64,000 nucleotides of DNA from Sumerlaeia bacterium (lineage in GTDB: Bacteria > Sumerlaeota > Sumerlaeia > SLMS01 > JAHLLQ01): the NCBI GenBank assembly GCA_040219255.1, contig JAVJSW010000042.1, forward strand, positions 96,001 to 160,000, written 5' to 3'. The notes under the pieces are model-generated. The model searched no databases, had not been told where the DNA came from, and saw only the letters and a list, made by a program, of their open reading frames with translations. Both the position numbers and the translations under genes were made by a program. This document shows positions 3,001-55,036 of this stretch, in pieces (within the stretch, counting starts at the first letter, position 1; every line of letters starts with the position of its first letter).

Positions 3001-6000
3001 CGGGGCGGGGTTGTCGCTGGTGCTGGGGCGGTTGACGGAAATGGCGCTCGACGGCGAGCCCTTTCCGGTTTCCGCCGACGAGCTGAAGGAAACATGGCTG
3101 GGAGAGCGATTCCGCGGTGAGGACCCGGTCGAGGCACTGGATTGGTGCCTGGAGCAGGCGCTGGCTCTGCGGGGCGAGGAGACCGGCGAGTACATCGTTT
3201 TCCGCTATGAGTATCGCGGCCGGCTGCAACTGGCGCGGGCGCTCCTGGCCGAACGTTCAGCGGTGAATCTTGGCGAGGAGGGACTGCCGCTGCTGCGATC
3301 CGCGGTGGATGGCGAGCGGGCTCGCATCCTGGCGCAGCAGCTCATCGACAACTCGCTGACGTCTGAGGAGGGGGGCTCGGTAGAGAAACTGGCTCTCTTC
3401 GCCCACGCCGTTCTGATCCGGGCAGCGGCCCGCAGCGGCTCGGTGGAGGACACGGAAGCGGCGGTCGAATCGGCGCTGAACTACGCCCGGCAGGCGGGCT
3501 GGGAGCACTTCCAATGGTGGCTGGCGGCGCAACCGGCGTTGATCGCGGGCTATCCGCAGACGGTCGAATCGGTCCGGTTGGCGCTCGAGCAGCTCGAAGC
3601 GCAGACACCCGGCGTCGCGACGCAGGAAACTCCCGTGCCCTACGACTTGCTGGCGTACTGTGAGCAGGTGGCCGTTTCCGCCGCCGCGCGCGAGGGCGAT
3701 TGGAACGAGGCTTGGGGCTTGGCGGAGCGCTGGCGCGCCATGCGGTTGCAACTCGGATTCACGGAAAGCCTGCCCCCCGCCCGCGAGTCCGACACCGCCG
3801 GGGCCGAGTGGCTGGCCACGGCGCGGACGCTAAAGCGCGCCACCCGCGACAAGCTGGTGCGGCTGCGCGATCTCCCCTACCTGGACCCGAACGTGGCCCA
3901 GGCGCGGCGAGAACTGGCGGAAGCCCGCAATGCCTGGGTCGCCCATTTGAACGAAGGCCGCGACGCCGGTATCGCCGCGGCTCTGATGATCGCGCCACGC
4001 GCGTCCTACGGCGATGGCAACACGCCGATCGAATTCGCCTCGCAGCTCTTCGACTTCGGACTCGCGCTGCCCGGTCCGCCGGCGCTGGTGCTTGTGACGC
4101 GGGAAGGCGCCGCCGCCTGGGCGGACCCCGAGAACCCGACGCAGGCCCGCCCCCTCGCATCTCCGGCTGACTGGGATTGGCTCGCCCGCCAGGCCACGGT
4201 CTGGTTCGTCAGCGGCGAGCCGCTGTCACCGGGAGCCGCTCCGGAGACGGTGACAGTCAGCCGGCTGCTGAACGCGGAAATGACGGCGGAGGCGCTGCGA
4301 ACCTACCGCTTCGACGTCTCGCCAGAGCCGGTCGCGGTCGCTGCGCCGGAGCGAACACTGACCTCGTCGGAACTCCGCCAGAGACTTCTCGACGGGCCGG
4401 ACATCGAACTGACGGCGCCGATCCTGACAAACGCGAGCGATCCGCTGGCATGGACACTGGAGGGTTCCGAACTGCAACTACGCGGGCTGGTGGCGGCTTT
4501 GCCGGACGTGGCGATTCTTCGCGCGACCTTGAAGGAAGCCACAGGAACCCGCAAGATCACGGCGAATCTTTCGCTGCGCCATCGCATCAACCAAGAGTTC
4601 CTGGCGGCGGCGATGTTCTATGGCGGCGTGACGGAGGCGATGATCGACGGCGAGCGCTGGCTCGGCGCGATCTTCAGCCCGGTCGAGTTGCGAGAGTTGG
4701 CCGAGCAGCAGGACGATGCGGATGTCGGCACCGTGATCGGCCGGCTGGAAAGCGGCGAAACAGCGGAGGCCCTGGCGCCGGCGCAACGCCTCTTCTCGAT
4801 TCGCCAGACCCTGGAGAAAAGCCCGCAGGACGTGGCCGAGGCGGGGCTGGTTCTCGCCCAGATCGAGGCGGACCTGGACCGTTACGCCCAAGCAGCGGAC
4901 GCGGCGGCGCGTGTCGTGAACGTGCTGGAGGGACAGGACGCGGAGCCGGCGACACTGGTGAACGCGCTGGATACGCTGGCGAGCTACGCGACGCGGGCCC
5001 GGGATTTCGATCAGGCGCTGGAGGCCAAATCGCGCTCCGCAAGTCTTTATGAACAACTGGGTGCTCTGGACTTACAGACAGAGGCCATCGCGGAGATGGG
5101 CGTTCTGGAGGAAAACCGGGGCAATTACGAGGAGGCCCTAAGCCAGTTCCGCCGTGCGCGGCAAATGGCCGCCGATTTCGGCGATCCGTACCTGGAAGCC
5201 AAGCAGTATCAACGCATCGGGCGCATCTACCTGCTTCGCCAGAACGATTATGTCAAGGCGGGCGAAGCCTTCGCCCAGGCCCGCGAGCTGGCCAGTGCCG
5301 CGCAGGCGCTGGAATTGGAGCTGGAGTCGCGCCTCGATCTTGCGCGCGTCGATGCCCGGCTGGGGCGGTTCGATGCCGCCATCGAGACGGCGAGGGCCGT
5401 TCGCGAGGACTCCCGCGATGCCAGCCTGCCCGTGGTAGAGACGGACGGGCTCCTGGTGGAGGGTGAAACCCATTGGGCCAAAGCGGATTACTTCGAGGCC
5501 TTCCAGCGCCAGCGCGAGGCGTTGCTGCTGGCCCAGGAGACGGACGACCAGCCCAACCGCTTCCGCGCGCGGAACTTCGCGGGGCTGATCTATTGGGCCC
5601 TGAACGATACGGAGGCGGCGCTCGCCGAATTCGACGAGGCCCTGAGACTGGCCCGTGAAATGATCTTCGACCTGGAAGTGGCCACCGCCCACAACAACCG
5701 CGGCCTGGTCTTCCGGTCCATGAAGCAATACCCGCGCGCCCTGGTGGAATTCAACGCGGCGCTGGCCATCGACCGGCGCCAGGGCAATGACTGGGGCGTG
5801 GCCTATGCCCAGCGCAATATCGGTCTGACGCATCTGCAAGACGAAAAACCCGAGCAATCCGTGGCTCCGCTGGAGGAAGCGGTGGCTCTGACGCAGAAGA
5901 TCGGCGACGAGCTGAATGGCGCCAAGGCGCTCGTGGCGCTGGCGGATGCGCGGCGGCAGCTCGGCGAGACGGAAGCGGCAAGCGACCTGTACGACCGGGC

Positions 6001-15259: not shown

Positions 15260-16621
15260 TCAGAAGAGCCGCAGTCGAAACGGCAGATTGAGGAGGCGGT
15301 GGGTGACGATGATTCCCGCGATGGAGGCGGCGATCTGGGCCAGGCTGCCCCCGGCCACCGCCAGGACCGGTCCGCCGAAGCGAGCACCGAGCCAAACCGC
15401 CGCGACGTTCACCACGCCCGTCGCCAGCGACACCCACAGCGCCGCCTTGGGATGGCCACCCTGGACCAGGATCGCCCCCGTGGCAACGTAGGATAACCCG
15501 AGCAACGGTAAGCACCAGCCGAGCCACTGGACCATCTCCGTAGCGTCGGTGTACTGGGGAAAGAGGGGCCGGATCACCAGGCCGTTCAAGAGAAAGGCGG
15601 CGGCTAACGGAAAAGAAACCGCCAGCACCAACCCATAGGTCCGATGGGTCATCGCCCGCAACCCCTCCTCGTCGCCCGTGGCCTTCAGCGCCGCCACGCG
15701 GGGGGACACGGCGTTGACGATGACGCCGTAGAGCAAGAGCGGAACGAGCAGAACGCGCTCGGCCAGACCAAAGTGCCCGGCCGCGGCTTCGCCGAAAAAA
15801 GCGGCGAGGATCACGGTGTTGACCTTGAAGTGAAAGTACCCGAGCGCCCCGCGGGGCAGGAGCGGCACGGCGTAGGCGAACACCGACGCGAGCGTGGCCT
15901 GGGCCGGTTCGGCGGGGGCGCGAAAGTACTGACGCGCGTAGGAAAGCGCCAACAGCCCCATGTTCAGCGTCTGGAACCCGCCCATCACCATCAGGTACCA
16001 GAACGGCCCGTAGCCCTTCATCGCCAGGACGATCAGCGCGGCGGCCTGGAGCGGCGCCAGCAGACACGCCCAGAGCGCCGGAATCGCGAAGTTCCTCAGG
16101 CCCCGGAAGGCGGCTTCGATCGCGTACTTGCCCAGCCGCGACACGGCCACGAAGACGGCGGCGGCGATTTCCGGCCACCAATCGGTCAGCAGTTCCAACC
16201 GCCACAGAAAAACCCCGAGCACCAGAAGCAGAGACAGCGCCAGGCTCAGCCCCAGCGCCCCTCCGACGCACCGCCAGCCGACTCGGGCGGCGGCTTCGAT
16301 CTGGCGCGTCGCTTCCTCGGCCACGGCCCGCATCTGCGCGATGATGAAGCCATCGACCACCATGGAAATCCACTGCGCGCCTGACAGCACCAGTGCCAGA
16401 ATGCCGAACAGGTGCGGACCATAGATGCGCGCCACGACCAGACTGACGAGGGTCAACGCGCCGACCTCCACGCCGGTCTGGATCAGGTTGTACGACAGAT
16501 GCCGCCCGAATCGCCCGGGAGCCAAGTGGGCCTTGATGCGGCCAATGAGGCCTTGGGGCGGAGGGTTGGCGGCGCTGGCTGTGGGATCGGGTGACGACAA
16601 CGGGCGGGCGGGTCCTTCCAA
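15260..16621 (-). CDS. Oligosaccharide flippase / polysaccharide biosynthesis protein (Wzx/MOP superfamily)
   Basis: About 12 hydrophobic segments; VARIYGPHLFG, FFGEAAAGHFGLAER patterns; start uncertain. Confidence 0.75.
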   Translation of the reverse strand: MEGPARPLSSPDPTASAANPPPQGLIGRIKAHLAPGRFGRHLSYNLIQTGVEVGALTLVSLVVARIYGPHLFGILALVLSGAQWISMVVDGFIIAQMRAVAEEATRQIEAAARVGWRCVGGALGLSLALSLLLVLGVFLWRLELLTDWWPEIAAAVFVAVSRLGKYAIEAAFRGLRNFAIPALWACLLAPLQAAALIVLAMKGYGPFWYLMVMGGFQTLNMGLLALSYARQYFRAPAEPAQATLASVFAYAVPLLPRGALGYFHFKVNTVILAAFFGEAAAGHFGLAERVLLVPLLLYGVIVNAVSPRVAALKATGDEEGLRAMTHRTYGLVLAVSFPLAAAFLLNGLVIRPLFPQYTDATEMVQWLGWCLPLLGLSYVATGAILVQGGHPKAALWVSLATGVVNVAAVWLGARFGGPVLAVAGGSLAQIAASIAGIIVTHRLLNLPFRLRLF

Positions 16622-16690
16622 CGAGGCGCCAGTCTGAAAAGGCGGCGGATTTGGGCAACGGAAAAGGGAGGGGGCGGCGGTGGGAGGAAA

Positions 16691-16891
16691 TCACCGCAGA
16701 GGCGCGGAGGACGCGGAGTAAAGCGGGCGAGGAGCTTATTGGTTTTCGTAGTTGGGCGACAAGGAATTCATTCCCAAATGGTGCCACAGATGATTCTTTA
16801 TAATTTATCTGCTCATCACGATTTCCAGGATTAAAAATCCGCTCATCCCCCATTCTTTGCACCTTTGCCCCTTCGCACCTTCGCGCTAGAA
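16691..16891. repeat. Intergenic periodic-arm element B
   Basis: Left CACCGCAGAG-GCGCGGAG-GACGCGGAG; AT-rich core; right CTTTGCAC-CTTTGCCC-CTTCGCAC-CTTCGCGC-TAGAA. Confidence 0.75.
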
Positions 16892-16909
16892 GCCATCAAC
16901 CAACCGTCC

Positions 16910-17620
16910 CTAAAGCAGCGCCACCGGGTCGTCCACTCTGAGGGTATCCTGGCTCAGGTACGCCTCGCCGTACTTCACGCCGATCAACGACCCGAAGTAC
17001 ATTCCGCGCGCTTCGATCATGCGCCAGGCGAGGTCGCTGGAAACAAAGGTATCGGCGCCTTTGTAGTTGGGATTGTGGAGTTGGGAGGTGTAGGACCGTA
17101 GCGATTCCATCTTCGTTTCCCAAACATCGGACACGTCCGCCACAAAGCTCACACGCTCTGGCAATTCCGTCCGCCGCCCCACCATGTACAAGAGCCGATG
17201 GACCCGGTGGCGTTCCTGGCCGGTGTCGTACTTGACCGTGTAGGAGGAAAAGATGGCGCGCTTGACAGCTTCGGCCAAGGCGTTGTGATCGGGGTGGTGG
17301 TCGCCCGGTTCATGGGTGATGACGAGGCGGGGGCGGTGCTCGCGGATGGCGTGGACGCAGGCGTGAACGGCCTGTGGCAGTTCGTCCGCGATCCGGCCGT
17401 CGGGCAGGCGCAGGTTGAGGCGCTTGGCGATGCCGAGAACCTCGCCGGCCGCGGTGGCTTCGCGGCGCCGTTCCTCGGGCGTGCCCCGGCTGCCCATTTC
17501 GCCGCCGGTGGCATCGGCGATCACAACCTTATAGCCGCGCCGCACGAGGCTCGCCACCAGGCCCCCACCCAGAATCTCCACGTCATCGGGATGGGCTCCG
17601 ATAAACAACACATCAGCCAT
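16910..17620 (-). CDS. bshB1: PIG-L family deacetylase, BshB1-like (N-acetylglucosaminyl-malate deacetylase)
   Basis: GAHPDDVE, TGGEMGSRGT, HPDH, IEARGMYFGSLIGVKYGEAY. Confidence 0.75.
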   Translation of the reverse strand: MADVLFIGAHPDDVEILGGGLVASLVRRGYKVVIADATGGEMGSRGTPEERRREATAAGEVLGIAKRLNLRLPDGRIADELPQAVHACVHAIREHRPRLVITHEPGDHHPDHNALAEAVKRAIFSSYTVKYDTGQERHRVHRLLYMVGRRTELPERVSFVADVSDVWETKMESLRSYTSQLHNPNYKGADTFVSSDLAWRMIEARGMYFGSLIGVKYGEAYLSQDTLRVDDPVALL

Positions 17621-20780: not shown

Positions 20781-20969
20781 CGACGCAAGGCAGCGAGGGT
20801 GCAAAGTTTGGGCAATGCGGAACACAACGAATGTTTCATGCATATTTATTTCCTTCTGAGTATCCAGGACGAGCCCAACATACCCACTTGTTGAAAACCT
20901 CAGAAGACGGCCGCCATGGAAGCAGAACCACGCACTTCGCGTCTCTGCTCGTTTGCACCTCTGGGTTAA
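20781..20969. repeat. Intergenic periodic-arm element C
   Basis: Left ACGCAAGG-CAGCGAGG-GTGCAAAG; right CTTCGCGT-CTCTGCTC-GTTTGCAC-CTCTGGGT-TAA; AT-richer core. Confidence 0.7.
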
Positions 20970-22171
20970 TTCCCTTTTCCTCCCACAGCGATATTATACC
21001 ACAACACCCTCACCGCCGGGCGGCTGTCTTTTCTGCCCCAGCCCACGATGCCCCACAGTGGGCCATGGGCCGCGTAGGTGCCGTCGCTGTCTTCACCGCC
21101 GGGCGTGCGATAATCCATCCACAAACTGCCCAAACCCACGAGACGGGTGGCTCCGGTGGGCTTGCCGGGGCGGCGCGGGTTCGCACCGTCCTCCCATTCC
21201 TTGTACGAGAGATAGAACGGCACGCCCCAGAGCGGACCGTGAACGGCGGCTTCGGTGCGTTCGCCGGGCTCCGTTTCCTGGAACATCGCCGTCGCCCAGA
21301 GAAGGCCGGAAAGCGCCGCGTTCAAGTTCACCTTGGACGCTGTGGTCGGCTGATCGTCCCCGGCAGTGGCGAATTCGCTCTCGTCAATGTGGAAGCCCAC
21401 GTAGCCGAGCAACCCGAGGGCGGGGCCGTGCAGGTCCACGCTGCCTTTGCTTCGTTCGTGTTCAATGGCGTCGTCGATTGACAGGTGCGCGCTGGACCAA
21501 ACAAATTCTCCCATAACGACCGGTAACCCGGGGGTCACAAACCATGCGTTGAACCGTTCGTGCCCGTCGCTGGTGACTTGGTCTCCACGCCCGCAGATTC
21601 CGCGCGGTCCCAAGTGCCACAAGGTCTGCCAAATCCGCGACCGCTCGCCGCCACCGGCGCGCCGAATGTCGATGCTGGAAAAGAACAGTGGTACACCGCC
21701 ACCGCTGAATATCGAATAGTCGTCATAGGGCGGCGAACCCGTGCTGGATGCGGTCGCATAGAATGGATTCCAACGCACTTTCCCCACCGCATCCGGCTCG
21801 CCTGGTCCATCGTAGGTATATTCGGTGTAATTGACCCAGAAAGGAGGAATCAAAGGCAGCGGATTCATGAAGCTCGACCTCGCACCCACGACATAGGGCG
21901 CCCGATCTACCCGCTTGGCCAGGAGTTCCTTCGCGAACCTGTTCAACGGAATGGGCCAAAATCTACCCGTGAGGAGTTGACTGGTCAGCGTGTCGAAGTC
22001 ATAGCCCGGGTCCCGATCAACTTTCTCCCACTCCGCCTCGGTGATCGCCCCCCCATGGCTGACTCGTTCGACCAATTCCGGATCGTCGAATTTCCGGTAG
22101 TCATCGCTCTTGATTGCGCAACCGCTCAAGACACATGCTATTAAAAGGGGAATCAGGACACGGAGAGTCAT
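20966..22171 (-). CDS. Hypothetical lipoprotein with C-terminal HGP(L/A)xG repeats
   Basis: Lipobox VLSG-C after hydrophobic stretch; no family recognised. Confidence 0.65.
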   Translation of the reverse strand: MTLRVLIPLLIACVLSGCAIKSDDYRKFDDPELVERVSHGGAITEAEWEKVDRDPGYDFDTLTSQLLTGRFWPIPLNRFAKELLAKRVDRAPYVVGARSSFMNPLPLIPPFWVNYTEYTYDGPGEPDAVGKVRWNPFYATASSTGSPPYDDYSIFSGGGVPLFFSSIDIRRAGGGERSRIWQTLWHLGPRGICGRGDQVTSDGHERFNAWFVTPGLPVVMGEFVWSSAHLSIDDAIEHERSKGSVDLHGPALGLLGYVGFHIDESEFATAGDDQPTTASKVNLNAALSGLLWATAMFQETEPGERTEAAVHGPLWGVPFYLSYKEWEDGANPRRPGKPTGATRLVGLGSLWMDYRTPGGEDSDGTYAAHGPLWGIVGWGRKDSRPAVRVLWYNIAVGGKGN

Positions 22172-22344
22172 CGCCCACACCTAACCTGGGATTGCGCCGA
22201 AGCGCCTTGTGCCGCATTCAACCGCCCAGTCCCCCCGAGTCCGCAAGCCGAGACCCCGCCCCCGCCGTGCTCTTTCACCGGAAAACCACCGCCCCGCCGC
22301 CGCCCAAGCCGCCGACGCCCCGTCAGCGGTCCGTGGATCGATTC

Positions 22345-23757: not shown

Positions 23758-23872
23758 GGAAGTTGGCGGACGATGAGCTTCCCGCCCCGCCCGTTTTTCC
23801 TTGTCCTTGTTCCTCCTTTTCGCCATCGGGAGGGGAGAATTCCGCCCGCGCACGACTGAGCCCTCCCGTTTT

Positions 23873-52144: not shown

Positions 52145-52801
52145 TTAGCCCGCCGCCATCACCCGCGCCAGCATCGGCTCCACCTCGGCCCGCACCCGCT
52201 CGGTGATCGCGTCCAGCGGAGCCTCGGCGTCGATGTGGCGAAAGTGGGAGCCTTCCAGCCCATCGAAAATCTCGCGCACGCGCACCAGCGACTCGCGCTT
52301 CTCGAACAGATCCTGACCCGATGCATGCCGCGAGCAGACCCTCTCCAGCGCCACATCCACCGGCAGCGTGAACACCAGCACGAGGTCGGGGCGCGGGGCG
52401 ATGGCTTCGTTGGCGCGAAGGATTTCCGCCGGGTCCAGGCCCAGCGCCCCCTGATACGCCATCGATGAAATGTAGTAGCGATCCATCAGGACCACCTCGC
52501 CGCGGGCGAGGGCGGGACCGATGCGCTCGCGCACGTCCCACGCGCGGTCCTCCAGAAACAACTCGAACTCGCGCCGCGGCGTCAGCTCATCCCGCCCCGC
52601 CTTGGCCAGGCGCCGGATCTCCAGGCCGACGGGCCCGGGCGTCGGTTCGTGAAACACGGACACGGGAAAACCTTTGCTCCCCAGCCACTCCGCCAGCAGT
52701 TTGGCCTGGGTCGATTTTCCGGCGCCGTCGATACCCTCGAACGCCACCAGCAACCCCCGGCGTTCTGAGGCGTGATGGGCTGCGGAAGCGTCGATGTCCA
52801 T
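52145..52801 (-). CDS. tmk: Thymidylate kinase
   Basis: FEGIDGAGKSTQ, HEP, MDRYYISSMAYQG, PDL. Confidence 0.93.
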   Translation of the reverse strand: MDIDASAAHHASERRGLLVAFEGIDGAGKSTQAKLLAEWLGSKGFPVSVFHEPTPGPVGLEIRRLAKAGRDELTPRREFELFLEDRAWDVRERIGPALARGEVVLMDRYYISSMAYQGALGLDPAEILRANEAIAPRPDLVLVFTLPVDVALERVCSRHASGQDLFEKRESLVRVREIFDGLEGSHFRHIDAEAPLDAITERVRAEVEPMLARVMAAG

Positions 52802-52892: not shown

Positions 52893-53117
52893 AACCACAG
52901 CGTGTCACAGAGGGCAGAGGTTTCACAGAGTTTTCAAAGAAGAAGCTCCCATGAGTCGAACACGCAGACCAGTTAATTCAATATTCATGAAAATGTATCG
53001 CAGGTGAGGAAAACGATCTTGAATTTCCAACGCATCTCACTTAAATCGACATTCTACTCCGGGGATACACCCTCGCCCCCCTTTGCACCTTTGAATCTTT
53101 GCTTCTTTGCGTTAGAA
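52893..53117. repeat. Intergenic periodic-arm element E
   Basis: Left AACCACAGCGTGTCACAGAGGGCAGAGGTTTCACAGAG; AT-rich core; right CTTTGCAC-CTTTGAAT-CTTTGCTT-CTTTGCGT-TAGAA. Confidence 0.75.
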
Positions 53118-53161: not shown

Positions 53162-54067
53162 ATGAAAGTCACCCTGATTCTCAACGGCAACAGCCTGCGC
53201 GGCAAGAGCGACGGCCTACCCCAGACCTTGCGGTCCATCTGCGAGAACCGCGGTCATCGTGTGCGCCTCGGCGTGTCCCGGTCTCTCCCCCATTTTCGCG
53301 AAATGATGCGCCGCGCCATCGCCGGCCGGCCGGACGTGATCCTGGTCGGCGGCGGCGATGGCACCTTCCATCATGCTATCAACGTCCCCGGCGCCGAGAC
53401 GGTGCCCATGGCCCCCCTGCCTATCGGCACTATCAACGCCTTTCAGCGCGCCGCCGGGCTGACCGCGCTCAAGCCCCCCGACGCCTTGCGGGCGTTGCTC
53501 GGGGGCGCCATCGTCGAGGGCTGGTGCGGAATCCTGGCGGACAAGCGCTTCGCCTGCTTTGCCAGCCTCGGCTTCGACGCCCGCGCGATTCATCGCAACC
53601 CGTTGTGGCTCAAGGACATGATGCGCGCCGGCAGCTTCCTCGTCACCGGCACCCGCCTTCTCGCCAGCAGCGTCCGCGACTCCTGCCCGGGCACACTCTC
53701 CTTCGACCGGCGCGACCTGCGATTCCCGGCGGCGTCGGTGCTGATTTCAAAGATTCAGAACTACGCCGGGTTCTCCTGCTTCGGCGCCAGCTTCGAAAAG
53801 CCCCGCCTGGAAGCCGTCTTCACCGCCACCGACTCCGCGAAAACCTTAATGCAGATGGCGTCCTACCTGGGGGCTCGTGGTCCCGTGTATGGCGACCCAG
53901 TGCCCAACGGCTTGGTCCACGTCCGCCGGTTCCGCGAAGCCCGCTGGCGATCGCCCTGCCCGACCCTGGTACAGCTTGACGGCGAGGCCATCCTTTTCGA
54001 AGACACCTGCCGCCTGAAAATCGGCCTCGACCCCAGGCGCCAGCGCTACCTTGTCCCCGCCGATTGA
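53162..54067 (+). CDS. Diacylglycerol kinase (YegS/DAGK) family lipid kinase
   Basis: GGGDGT, PIGTINAF, GFDA, QLDGE. Confidence 0.85.
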   Translation: MKVTLILNGNSLRGKSDGLPQTLRSICENRGHRVRLGVSRSLPHFREMMRRAIAGRPDVILVGGGDGTFHHAINVPGAETVPMAPLPIGTINAFQRAAGLTALKPPDALRALLGGAIVEGWCGILADKRFACFASLGFDARAIHRNPLWLKDMMRAGSFLVTGTRLLASSVRDSCPGTLSFDRRDLRFPAASVLISKIQNYAGFSCFGASFEKPRLEAVFTATDSAKTLMQMASYLGARGPVYGDPVPNGLVHVRRFREARWRSPCPTLVQLDGEAILFEDTCRLKIGLDPRRQRYLVPAD

Positions 54068-54623: not shown

Positions 54624-55036
54624 CCCCTCCCCCCAGGCGCGGAGAGCGCTGAGACAGCCCCGCTTCCCGATGATTCAAGATTAACTTCAGTCCCTCGCCC
54701 GATGTCTCTTTTGTCTTTCTTGCTCCTCAGTCTCCACATGAGGGGACAAACGCCAAGCCCTGTGAGAGGCTCCGCCCACTTCCCCACCAGACGTGGGCCG
54801 CGGGAGTCACCGCCATGCAAACGATCGCTCTTCCCATCCTGCCCAGCCCTCGCCGGAACTCGTCCGATTCTCAGCATTTTCCGCGTCTCGGCGGGGACTT
54901 TCGAGCCTCACCGAACCCCAACAATCGCCCCTTGACCCGAGGGGGCCCTCGGGCGGAGCACTCTCTCCCGAACAGCGAACCTGGGAGGAACCATTCGCCT
55001 TATGAACCCCATGGTCAGAAAGGCGGGCCCGCCACG

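Follow-up and report, generated by a model that had tools for sequence, protein, structure and literature searches.

Three intergenic regions in a stretch of bacterial DNA raised the question of what kind of unit they represent, and whether they serve the host or only reside in it. The stretch, called here the window, comprises 64,000 nucleotides of a Sumerlaeia bacterium (G000:C42:96001-160000, where G000 denotes this genome and C-numbers its contigs); the genome assembly is 5.35 Mb in 83 contigs, with 63.6% G+C, and is 92% complete. An earlier note on this DNA had described the regions as periodic arms of 8-nt words enclosing AT-rich cores. The data presented below place them, with high confidence, in a family of cassettes built around a GxxExxY nuclease gene, and it is quite likely that they are selfish or neutral rather than regulatory. 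The more specific reading that we favor, and consider probable, is that they are gene-less, non-autonomous or decayed members of a small selfish cassette family and not host control signals.

The three elements occupy positions 16686-16891, 20783-20969 and 52893-53117 and share one layout, in which a purine-rich periodic arm is followed by a unique, AT-rich core of 116-150 nt and then by a (CTYYGCNN)x4 arm that ends in TAA or TAG. In element 1, the left terminus (GGAAATCACC) and a purine arm of three units with the CGCAGAG/CGCGGAG flavour were found at 16686-16718 (plus strand), reading TCACC-GCAGAGG-CGCGGAGG-ACGCGGAG; the regular-expression search returned this arm at 16696-16718 as a minus-strand match. 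The core at 16719-16854 has 43% G+C and is single-copy (measured over 16720-16854, 135 nt), and the pyrimidine arm CTTTGCAC CTTTGCCC CTTCGCAC CTTCGCGC with the terminus TAGAA closes the element at 16855-16891 (plus strand, nhmmer E 4.8e-9), the right end reading GC-TAGAA. Element 2 begins with a degenerate purine arm (ACGCAAGGCAGCGAGGGTGCAAAG, 20783-20806, plus strand, two mismatches), continues with a unique single-copy core at 20807-20934 (48% G+C, measured over the 123 nt of 20812-20934), and ends with the pyrimidine arm CTTCGCGT CTCTGCTC GTTTGCAC CTCTGGGT and TAA at 20935-20969 (plus strand, nhmmer E 9.1e-7), where the right terminus reads GGGT-TAA. The left terminus and purine arm of element 3 lie at 52893-52930 (plus strand), are of the CACAGAG flavour (ACCACAGCG..CACAGAGGGCAGAGG..CACAGAG) and are followed by a unique, AT-rich, single-copy core at 52931-53080 (45% G+C, measured over 52935-53080, 146 nt) and by the pyrimidine arm CTTTGCAC CTTTGAAT CTTTGCTT CTTTGCGT with TAGAA at 53081-53117 (plus strand, nhmmer E 5e-10); its left terminus is AACCAC and its right one GCGT-TAGAA.

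The right arms were present exactly where and as the earlier note had written them (16855-16886 followed by TAGAA, 20935-20966 followed by TAA, and 53081-53112 followed by TAGAA). The complementary purine arms that it had seen at each left end are clear in elements 1 and 3, and that of element 2 is degenerate; a full pair of inverted arms, each with RCRRAG/CTYYGY as the core of at least three units about 8 nt long, is therefore present in elements 1 and 3 only. Outward termini, which in the wider family are (T)TCACC beside the purine arm and, beyond the pyrimidine arm, GGTGA(A) or GTTAA, were also found in the window elements. That the cores are AT-rich and unlike each other was borne out as well (43-48% G+C against 63.6% for the genome, each single-copy in the genome). 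The count of five or six elements in 64 kb had to be lowered, as the scans gave three, plus one possible solo arm remnant of 18 nt (GGCGCGGAGAGCGCTGAG, 54636-54653, plus strand), an 18-mer which, compared by eye, occurs unchanged in the left arm of the C59 cassette described below and for which a partner arm was looked for and none was found. A different repeat of 58 copies, at 54701-54751, may have been included in that count.

The frequency of the motif in the window was compared with that in shuffled DNA, as the earlier note had proposed. With at most two mismatches allowed, (CTYYGCNN)x3 matched ten times against an expectation of 0.53 (sd 0.74), and none of 100 dinucleotide shuffles reached ten. 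Seven of these ten matches fall inside the three elements; the others, at 4747 (minus strand), 52672 and 54091 (both plus strand), carry two mismatches each and lie outside them.

To cover the whole genome, arms were searched for with the general unit CTYYGY and spacers of 1-3 nt, and two order-2 Markov genomes with the same size and trinucleotide make-up were used as controls. The search returned 120 arms of at least three units, while 0 and 7 were obtained in the two simulated genomes. CTCTGTG, with the terminus GGTGAATTT, is the commonest flavour, and it is accompanied by CTCCGTG, by CTCTGCG/CTCCGCG and by a CTTTGC type which has four units and the terminus GTTAAA; about 24 CTTTGC-type arms ending in GCGT-TAA were recovered with nhmmer (E <1e-3). 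When strong arms had a neighbour within 600 nt, the termini faced outward in 17/17 pairs, indicating that arm pairs are units. A relaxed partner search gave 48 pairs and 55 solo arms, with cores of 57-260 nt in 42 of the pairs and a core that clustered with nothing else in 29. The flavour class differed between the left and right arms in 16 of 46 pairs, as it does in elements 1 and 3. One gene-less form, with sharply defined ends, occupies at least six unrelated sites; its arm flavours are mixed, and its arms are somewhat better conserved than its core (91.4% and 85.6% pairwise identity, respectively). Gene-less units therefore do multiply, and the aligned ends of the six copies showed no target-site duplication. 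The REPIN- or MITE-like interpretation offered earlier agrees with these dispersed arms, outward pairs and multiplied gene-less copies.

The earlier note had also suggested that similar arrays flank GxxExxY (TIGR04256) genes in other bacteria, and this link was verified in the same genome. Five TIGR04256 genes are present in G000, and arms of the same kinds flank four of them. The copy at C46:145548-146031 lies between CTTTGC-type arms (TTTAACGCAAAG...GTGCAAAGG-ATG ... CCTTTGCACC...CTTTGCGTTAAA), and the one at C59:7330-7770 between TCACCGCAGAGGCGCGGAG-type arms of the CGCAGAG/CGCGGAG flavour; the left terminus and arm of element 1 are those that flank the C59 gene, and many further copies of them occur in G000 and in a second genome, G012. 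Two arm types of the window thus flank a GxxExxY gene, and in these two intact cassettes the left and right arms are near-identical. Two more copies lie on C35, at 25589 with CACGGAG arms and at 23830 with a CAGATGAAT-type arm. The left arm type of element 3 was also found on C55, C37, C1 and C73 and in the six-copy gene-less family. A complete cassette accordingly opens with the terminus (T)TCACC or TTAAC and a purine arm in which the core RCRRAG is repeated in 3-4 units, each about 8 nt long; then come a GxxExxY gene of about 125 aa (TIGR04256/PF13366, PD-(D/E)XK fold) and the complementary pyrimidine arm with its terminus. In GxxExxY genes, the purine arm places GGAG/AAGG about 8 nt ahead of the start codon ATG. 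The fifth copy (C49:77714-78049) is arm-less and host-like in composition (60% G+C, GC3 83%), sits on a tree branch 4.66 long, and may be domesticated or diverged.

In order to see how general this association is, flanking inverted repeats scoring at least 30 were sought around GxxExxY genes, with the reversed sequence as the control. They were found at 4/5 loci in G000 (control 0/5), at 17/25 loci in other genomes of the order (control 0/25; 25 of 26 loci had enough flank), and at 67/77 loci in a one-genome-per-species collection (control 4/77), where the loci came from the best 80 matches of 592 relatives and 77 had enough flank. Almost all arms in this last set are of the periodic TCACC-(ACAGAGNC)n kind, and their carriers include Acidobacteriota, several proteobacterial classes, Chloroflexi, Planctomycetota, Verrucomicrobiota, Cyanobacteria, Bacteroidota, Gemmatimonadota, Chlamydiota and an archaeon, a Methanothrix. 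GxxExxY proteins of 55-67% identity were found across phyla, which points to horizontal spread. The cassette family appears to occur in most bacterial phyla and is apparently undescribed: our literature search, which did not extend to database comments or paywalled papers, found nothing that describes the arms or the function of GxxExxY (PF13366), and in the 2012 PD-(D/E)XK survey the function of the family is given as 'Unknown' (PMC3424549). At two loci in the comparison, L096 and L100, a complete gene-less arm pair including its core stands on each side of the GxxExxY gene, an arrangement resembling a RAYT gene flanked by REPINs.

The abundance of arms was also followed through 75 genomes of the phylum, in which it ranged from 0 to 157 per genome (mostly 0-3 in the reversed-pattern controls). 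Within the order, arm counts rose with GxxExxY counts (rho 0.51, n=25, the related genomes not being independent), and six genomes of the order carry a GxxExxY gene and had no match to the fixed arm pattern. G012 gave 56 arm hits, and its sole GxxExxY match is broken, a 75-aa frame with an internal stop, in an assembly that is 80% complete. Likewise, CACAGAG, which is the commonest flavour in G000, is without a resident GxxExxY gene in this 92%-complete assembly. When arm flavour was mapped on the protein tree, which is poorly resolved, 31 changes were needed, against a mean of 39.8 and a minimum of 34 for shuffled flavours; such weak tracking argues against strict recognition of one arm by one enzyme. 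A simple one-enzyme-one-arm model is opposed by this result, by the mixed flavours within pairs, by the CACAGAG arms and by G012.

The enzyme itself looks catalytically active, judging from its conserved residues and its predicted structure. D62, E72 and K74, together with G17, G19, E22 and Y25, are invariant in 14 GxxExxY sequences, and the structure model is confident (pLDDT 94.4). The best fold matches obtained with VIA-align were AF1548 (Z 7.8), a Cas4 (7.4), NucS (7.0) and Hjc (6.4), all of PD-(D/E)XK type; since these represent the generic fold, a specific functional relative does not emerge. No match was found among solved structures searched by sequence, and the best Foldseek E-value was 0.049. 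Broken GxxExxY genes, with stops inside the matches, were observed in relatives.

We then turned to the contents of the cores. Neither a GxxExxY gene nor a remnant of one was found in the three window cores, which makes these elements gene-less forms, and the best six-frame HMM match in gene-less cores had an E of 5.5, as compared to 0.68 for shuffled cores, a result counted against descent from full cassettes. No further copies of the window cores were found in G000; being single-copy, these three show no sign of having multiplied. Across the genome, 55 of the 120 arms have a frame of 60 aa or more following on their inner side; read by eye, two of these frames are GxxExxY and the others look like host genes or chance frames, and no other recurrent cargo was seen among them. 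The mean G+C of cores was 47.5% (n=42), versus 59.1% for arm-less spacers (n=725), of which 5.8% have 48% or less, and the arm-flanked GxxExxY genes, at 47-53%, are near the composition of the cores.

When cores 1 and 3 were searched for in the 24 other genomes of the order, nothing beyond marginal matches was obtained, of 19-25 nt for core 1 (E 0.003-0.01, in two genomes) and, in a single case, of 31 nt for core 3 (E 0.004). The element 1 region (16550-16950) contained no promoter or terminator consensus. The suggested comparison with phage and plasmid collections, made with element 1, gave no match. None of the three elements matched an Rfam 15 covariance model at E <=1, and a scan of the window at Rfam gathering scores returned two tRNAs and nothing else. 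As RNA, the elements folded little better than shuffled sequences (z -1.79, -1.36, -0.61 and +0.59); the arms of element 1 can pair in the fold of either strand, and no G-U asymmetry between its strands was detected.

All three elements adjoin housekeeping genes. Element 1 is situated between a PIG-L deacetylase gene (16910-17620), from the stop of which its right end is separated by 19 nt, and a polysaccharide-synthesis gene. Element 2 lies between a gene of unknown kind and glnE; a minus-strand frame of 404 aa without a Pfam match (20966-22180) has its stop, TTA/TAA, inside the TTAA terminus of the element (20966-20968), and the element may abut this frame or may have replaced the end of that gene. 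Element 3 separates the divergent tmk (52145-52801, minus strand) and DAGK-type kinase (53165-54067, plus strand) genes, where it accounts for 225 nt of a 363-nt spacer. The nearest genomes available for comparison belong to other genera, at 65-72% DNA identity. In one of them, G010, which belongs to the same family but to another genus, the orthologues of tmk and of the kinase gene also lie side by side in divergent orientation, and the spacer of about 90 nt between them is without arms. PIG-L orthologues in relatives have neighbours different from those at the element 1 locus, and arms were found downstream of 0/7. No DNA-level orthologues of the element 2 flanks were found in 30 relatives, a 29-nt flank had 0 matches among metagenome contigs, and three DNA runs gave no joint across any element, the contigs that end at the left arm of element 1 being of low depth, which carries no information on presence or absence. 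According to a rough gene call, 26 of 46 elements genome-wide occupy tandem, 10 convergent and 9 divergent spacers. Taken together, the low G+C of the cores, the weak folds, the lack of Rfam matches and, in element 1, of a promoter consensus, and the element-free orthologous spacer in G010 argue for inserted selfish or neutral DNA.

How might such units have spread? The arms would serve as cis-acting ends, which a nuclease supplied in trans by resident copies may recognise or cut, the C46 gene acting on CTTTGC arms and the C59 gene on CGCRGAG arms. The substrate would probably be a hairpin, a cruciform or a single-stranded form, and copies would enter intergenic spacers without target duplication, in the manner of REP/REPIN sequences with their RAYT enzyme. 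Gene-less pairs could either have been mobilised in trans or be what remains of full cassettes. That the GxxExxY nuclease is the mobilising enzyme seems to us nearly an even matter, tilting slightly towards no. The window copies, with their mixed flavours and weak stems, would most likely be old, having spread gene-less or decayed in place, and they are probably inert where they now lie among housekeeping genes.

A rather unlikely variant is a homing-type system, in which gene-less arm pairs would be landing pads rather than dead copies. The GxxExxY nuclease would cut arm pairs that lack the gene, repair from a gene-bearing copy would turn these empty sites into cassettes, the periodic arms would provide short, register-tolerant homology, and cores and arm flavours would be shuffled between sites as by-products. 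If true, the family would be a mobile element of a new class, with a PD-(D/E)XK enzyme as its driver, ends made of 8-nt words and a presence in most bacterial phyla.

Apart from the gene-less or decayed selfish cassettes that we favor, the most serious account of the window elements is that each arose from a separate insertion of a full cassette whose gene was then lost in situ by deletion or drift, and that none ever moved without its gene. The three single-copy, mutually different cores, the 29 of 48 genome pairs with singleton cores, the G+C that cores share with arm-flanked GxxExxY genes and the broken genes in relatives would all be expected from such relics; yet gene-less cores hold no protein-level trace of GxxExxY, 42 of 48 are far shorter than a gene of about 400 nt, the family of at least six copies does multiply gene-less, and the arms of elements 1 and 3 differ in flavour where those of intact cassettes are near-identical. 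We consider this history a minority possibility, though one of real weight. A role in host control is improbable by comparison: functions of the kind proposed for some REP/BIME sequences, such as stem-loops that stabilise or terminate mRNA, insulators or sites bound by proteins, would suit the strictly intergenic position close to gene ends, the pairing of the element 1 arms on either strand and the better conservation of arms in the six-copy family. Such signals are, however, hard to reconcile with weak fold z-scores, with the lack of promoter or terminator consensus in element 1, with the occupation of tandem, convergent and divergent spacers alike, with the absence of the elements from the G010 spacer and from downstream of seven PIG-L orthologues, and with the occurrence of identical arm kinds beside a nuclease gene across phyla.

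Conserved arms around unique cores, and the different flavours of left and right arm in 16 of 46 pairs, which crossovers between elements would produce, could also be read as recombination sites of a cassette-exchange system, an alternative raised in the earlier note, with the cores as exchanged cargo, similar to integron attC. We regard this as very improbable, because the elements are dispersed and single, no cassette arrays were seen, no integron integrase scored above the family cut-off, and GxxExxY is the only recurrent cargo among frames starting inside arms (read by eye). Still more remote is the proposal that the cores encode small RNAs or micro-proteins for which the arms are processing or expression signals. 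With GGAG/AAGG at the spacing found about 8 nt before the GxxExxY ATG, the purine arm could drive translation of whatever follows it, and by eye a short open frame does start after the arm of element 1; cores 1 and 3 are nevertheless not conserved among the other 24 genomes of the order, the three elements lack an Rfam match at E <=1 and their folds are weak, and we give the proposal hardly any credence.

Among known systems, REP/REPIN sequences with their RAYT transposase are the closest analogue, yet the arm family is not a member of them. REP sequences are short and abundant intergenic repeats whose inverted doublets behave as non-autonomous units (PMC3116915, PMC3733652), and the sections of these two papers that could be consulted contain no mention of the present arms. 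Both systems combine abundant short intergenic repeats, inverted doublets and a small gene flanked by the same repeats, and in both target duplication is not visible. They differ in that RAYT has an HUH Y1 fold and the GxxExxY enzyme a PD-(D/E)XK fold, and in that REP units are self-palindromic hairpins, whereas the arms are strand-asymmetric purine or pyrimidine runs of 8-nt units which pair only left with right; unlike REP/RAYT, the family is also represented in a genome by several copies of the gene and by arms of several flavours. In the RAREFAN preprint, RAYTs are described as mostly vertically inherited, in contrast to the horizontal spread indicated for GxxExxY proteins. No periodic arms were found within 5 kb of the two Y1_Tnp (PF01797) genes of G000, at C68:109316 and C56:126591.

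MITEs of DDE transposons share with the elements terminal inverted repeats, a short non-coding core, multiple copies and an enzyme encoded elsewhere, but their ends are simple inverted repeats and not periodic arrays, and no DDE transposase was linked to the arms. A DDE-type MITE was rejected because no target duplication was present at the ends of the six-copy family. Integron cassettes resemble the elements in having imperfect inverted repeats that bound variable cargo, and differ from them in forming arrays, the elements being dispersed singly between housekeeping genes; this identity was also rejected, since the best TIGR02249 integrase match reached 66 bits versus a cut-off of 265. The intervening sequences of 23S rRNA carry a gene for a four-helix bundle (TIGR02436/PF05635) whose complementary flanks can form a stem, and genomes of similar kinds harbour the TIGR02436 and GxxExxY families. 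Both systems have a small gene placed between complementary flanks; the present elements, however, lie between protein-coding genes and not in rRNA, and no match to TIGR02436 was found in G000. PF05635 is described in PMC10053308.

On its own, the window is a modest result, and the interest lies in the wider family. If the reading as gene-less members of a selfish cassette family is true, the literature has overlooked a very common and very small selfish element, consisting of a nuclease gene of about 125 aa and two arms of 8-base words. The large family of 'GxxExxY proteins' would then gain a function, many of the odd AT-rich spacers bounded by repeats and of the spurious small ORFs met in genome annotation would be explained, and a second system, independent of REP/RAYT, would be at hand in which to study the persistence of short repeats in compact genomes.

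Several other repeats were noticed in the same genome. The Y1_Tnp (RAYT-like) gene at C56:126150-126960 is flanked by its own inverted palindromes (GAGCGCGAGCGTCCCGCTCGCA...), with a score of 51 against 25 for the control, and would be a separate REP-like system in G000. The unrelated dispersed repeat at 54701-54751 of the window (...TTGTCT(A/T)TCTTG(T/C)(T/C)CC..AAGCTCCACATGAGGGGACAAAC) recurs in the genome at 57 further positions. Its features are a GTCCCC/GGGGAC stem and an 18-nt core with 58 matches at up to two mismatches, and the window copy lies about 60 nt upstream of a frame starting at 54815. CTTTGC-type arms on C17, C39 and C54 stand about 100-130 nt from a copy of this repeat. Finally, near-identical CTTTGC-type arms at C33:46329-46377 and C34:5266-5314 directly adjoin frames that by eye resemble pieces of a tyrosine recombinase; here the arm may interrupt the recombinase gene, or a mobile element that comprises the entire region may have been duplicated.
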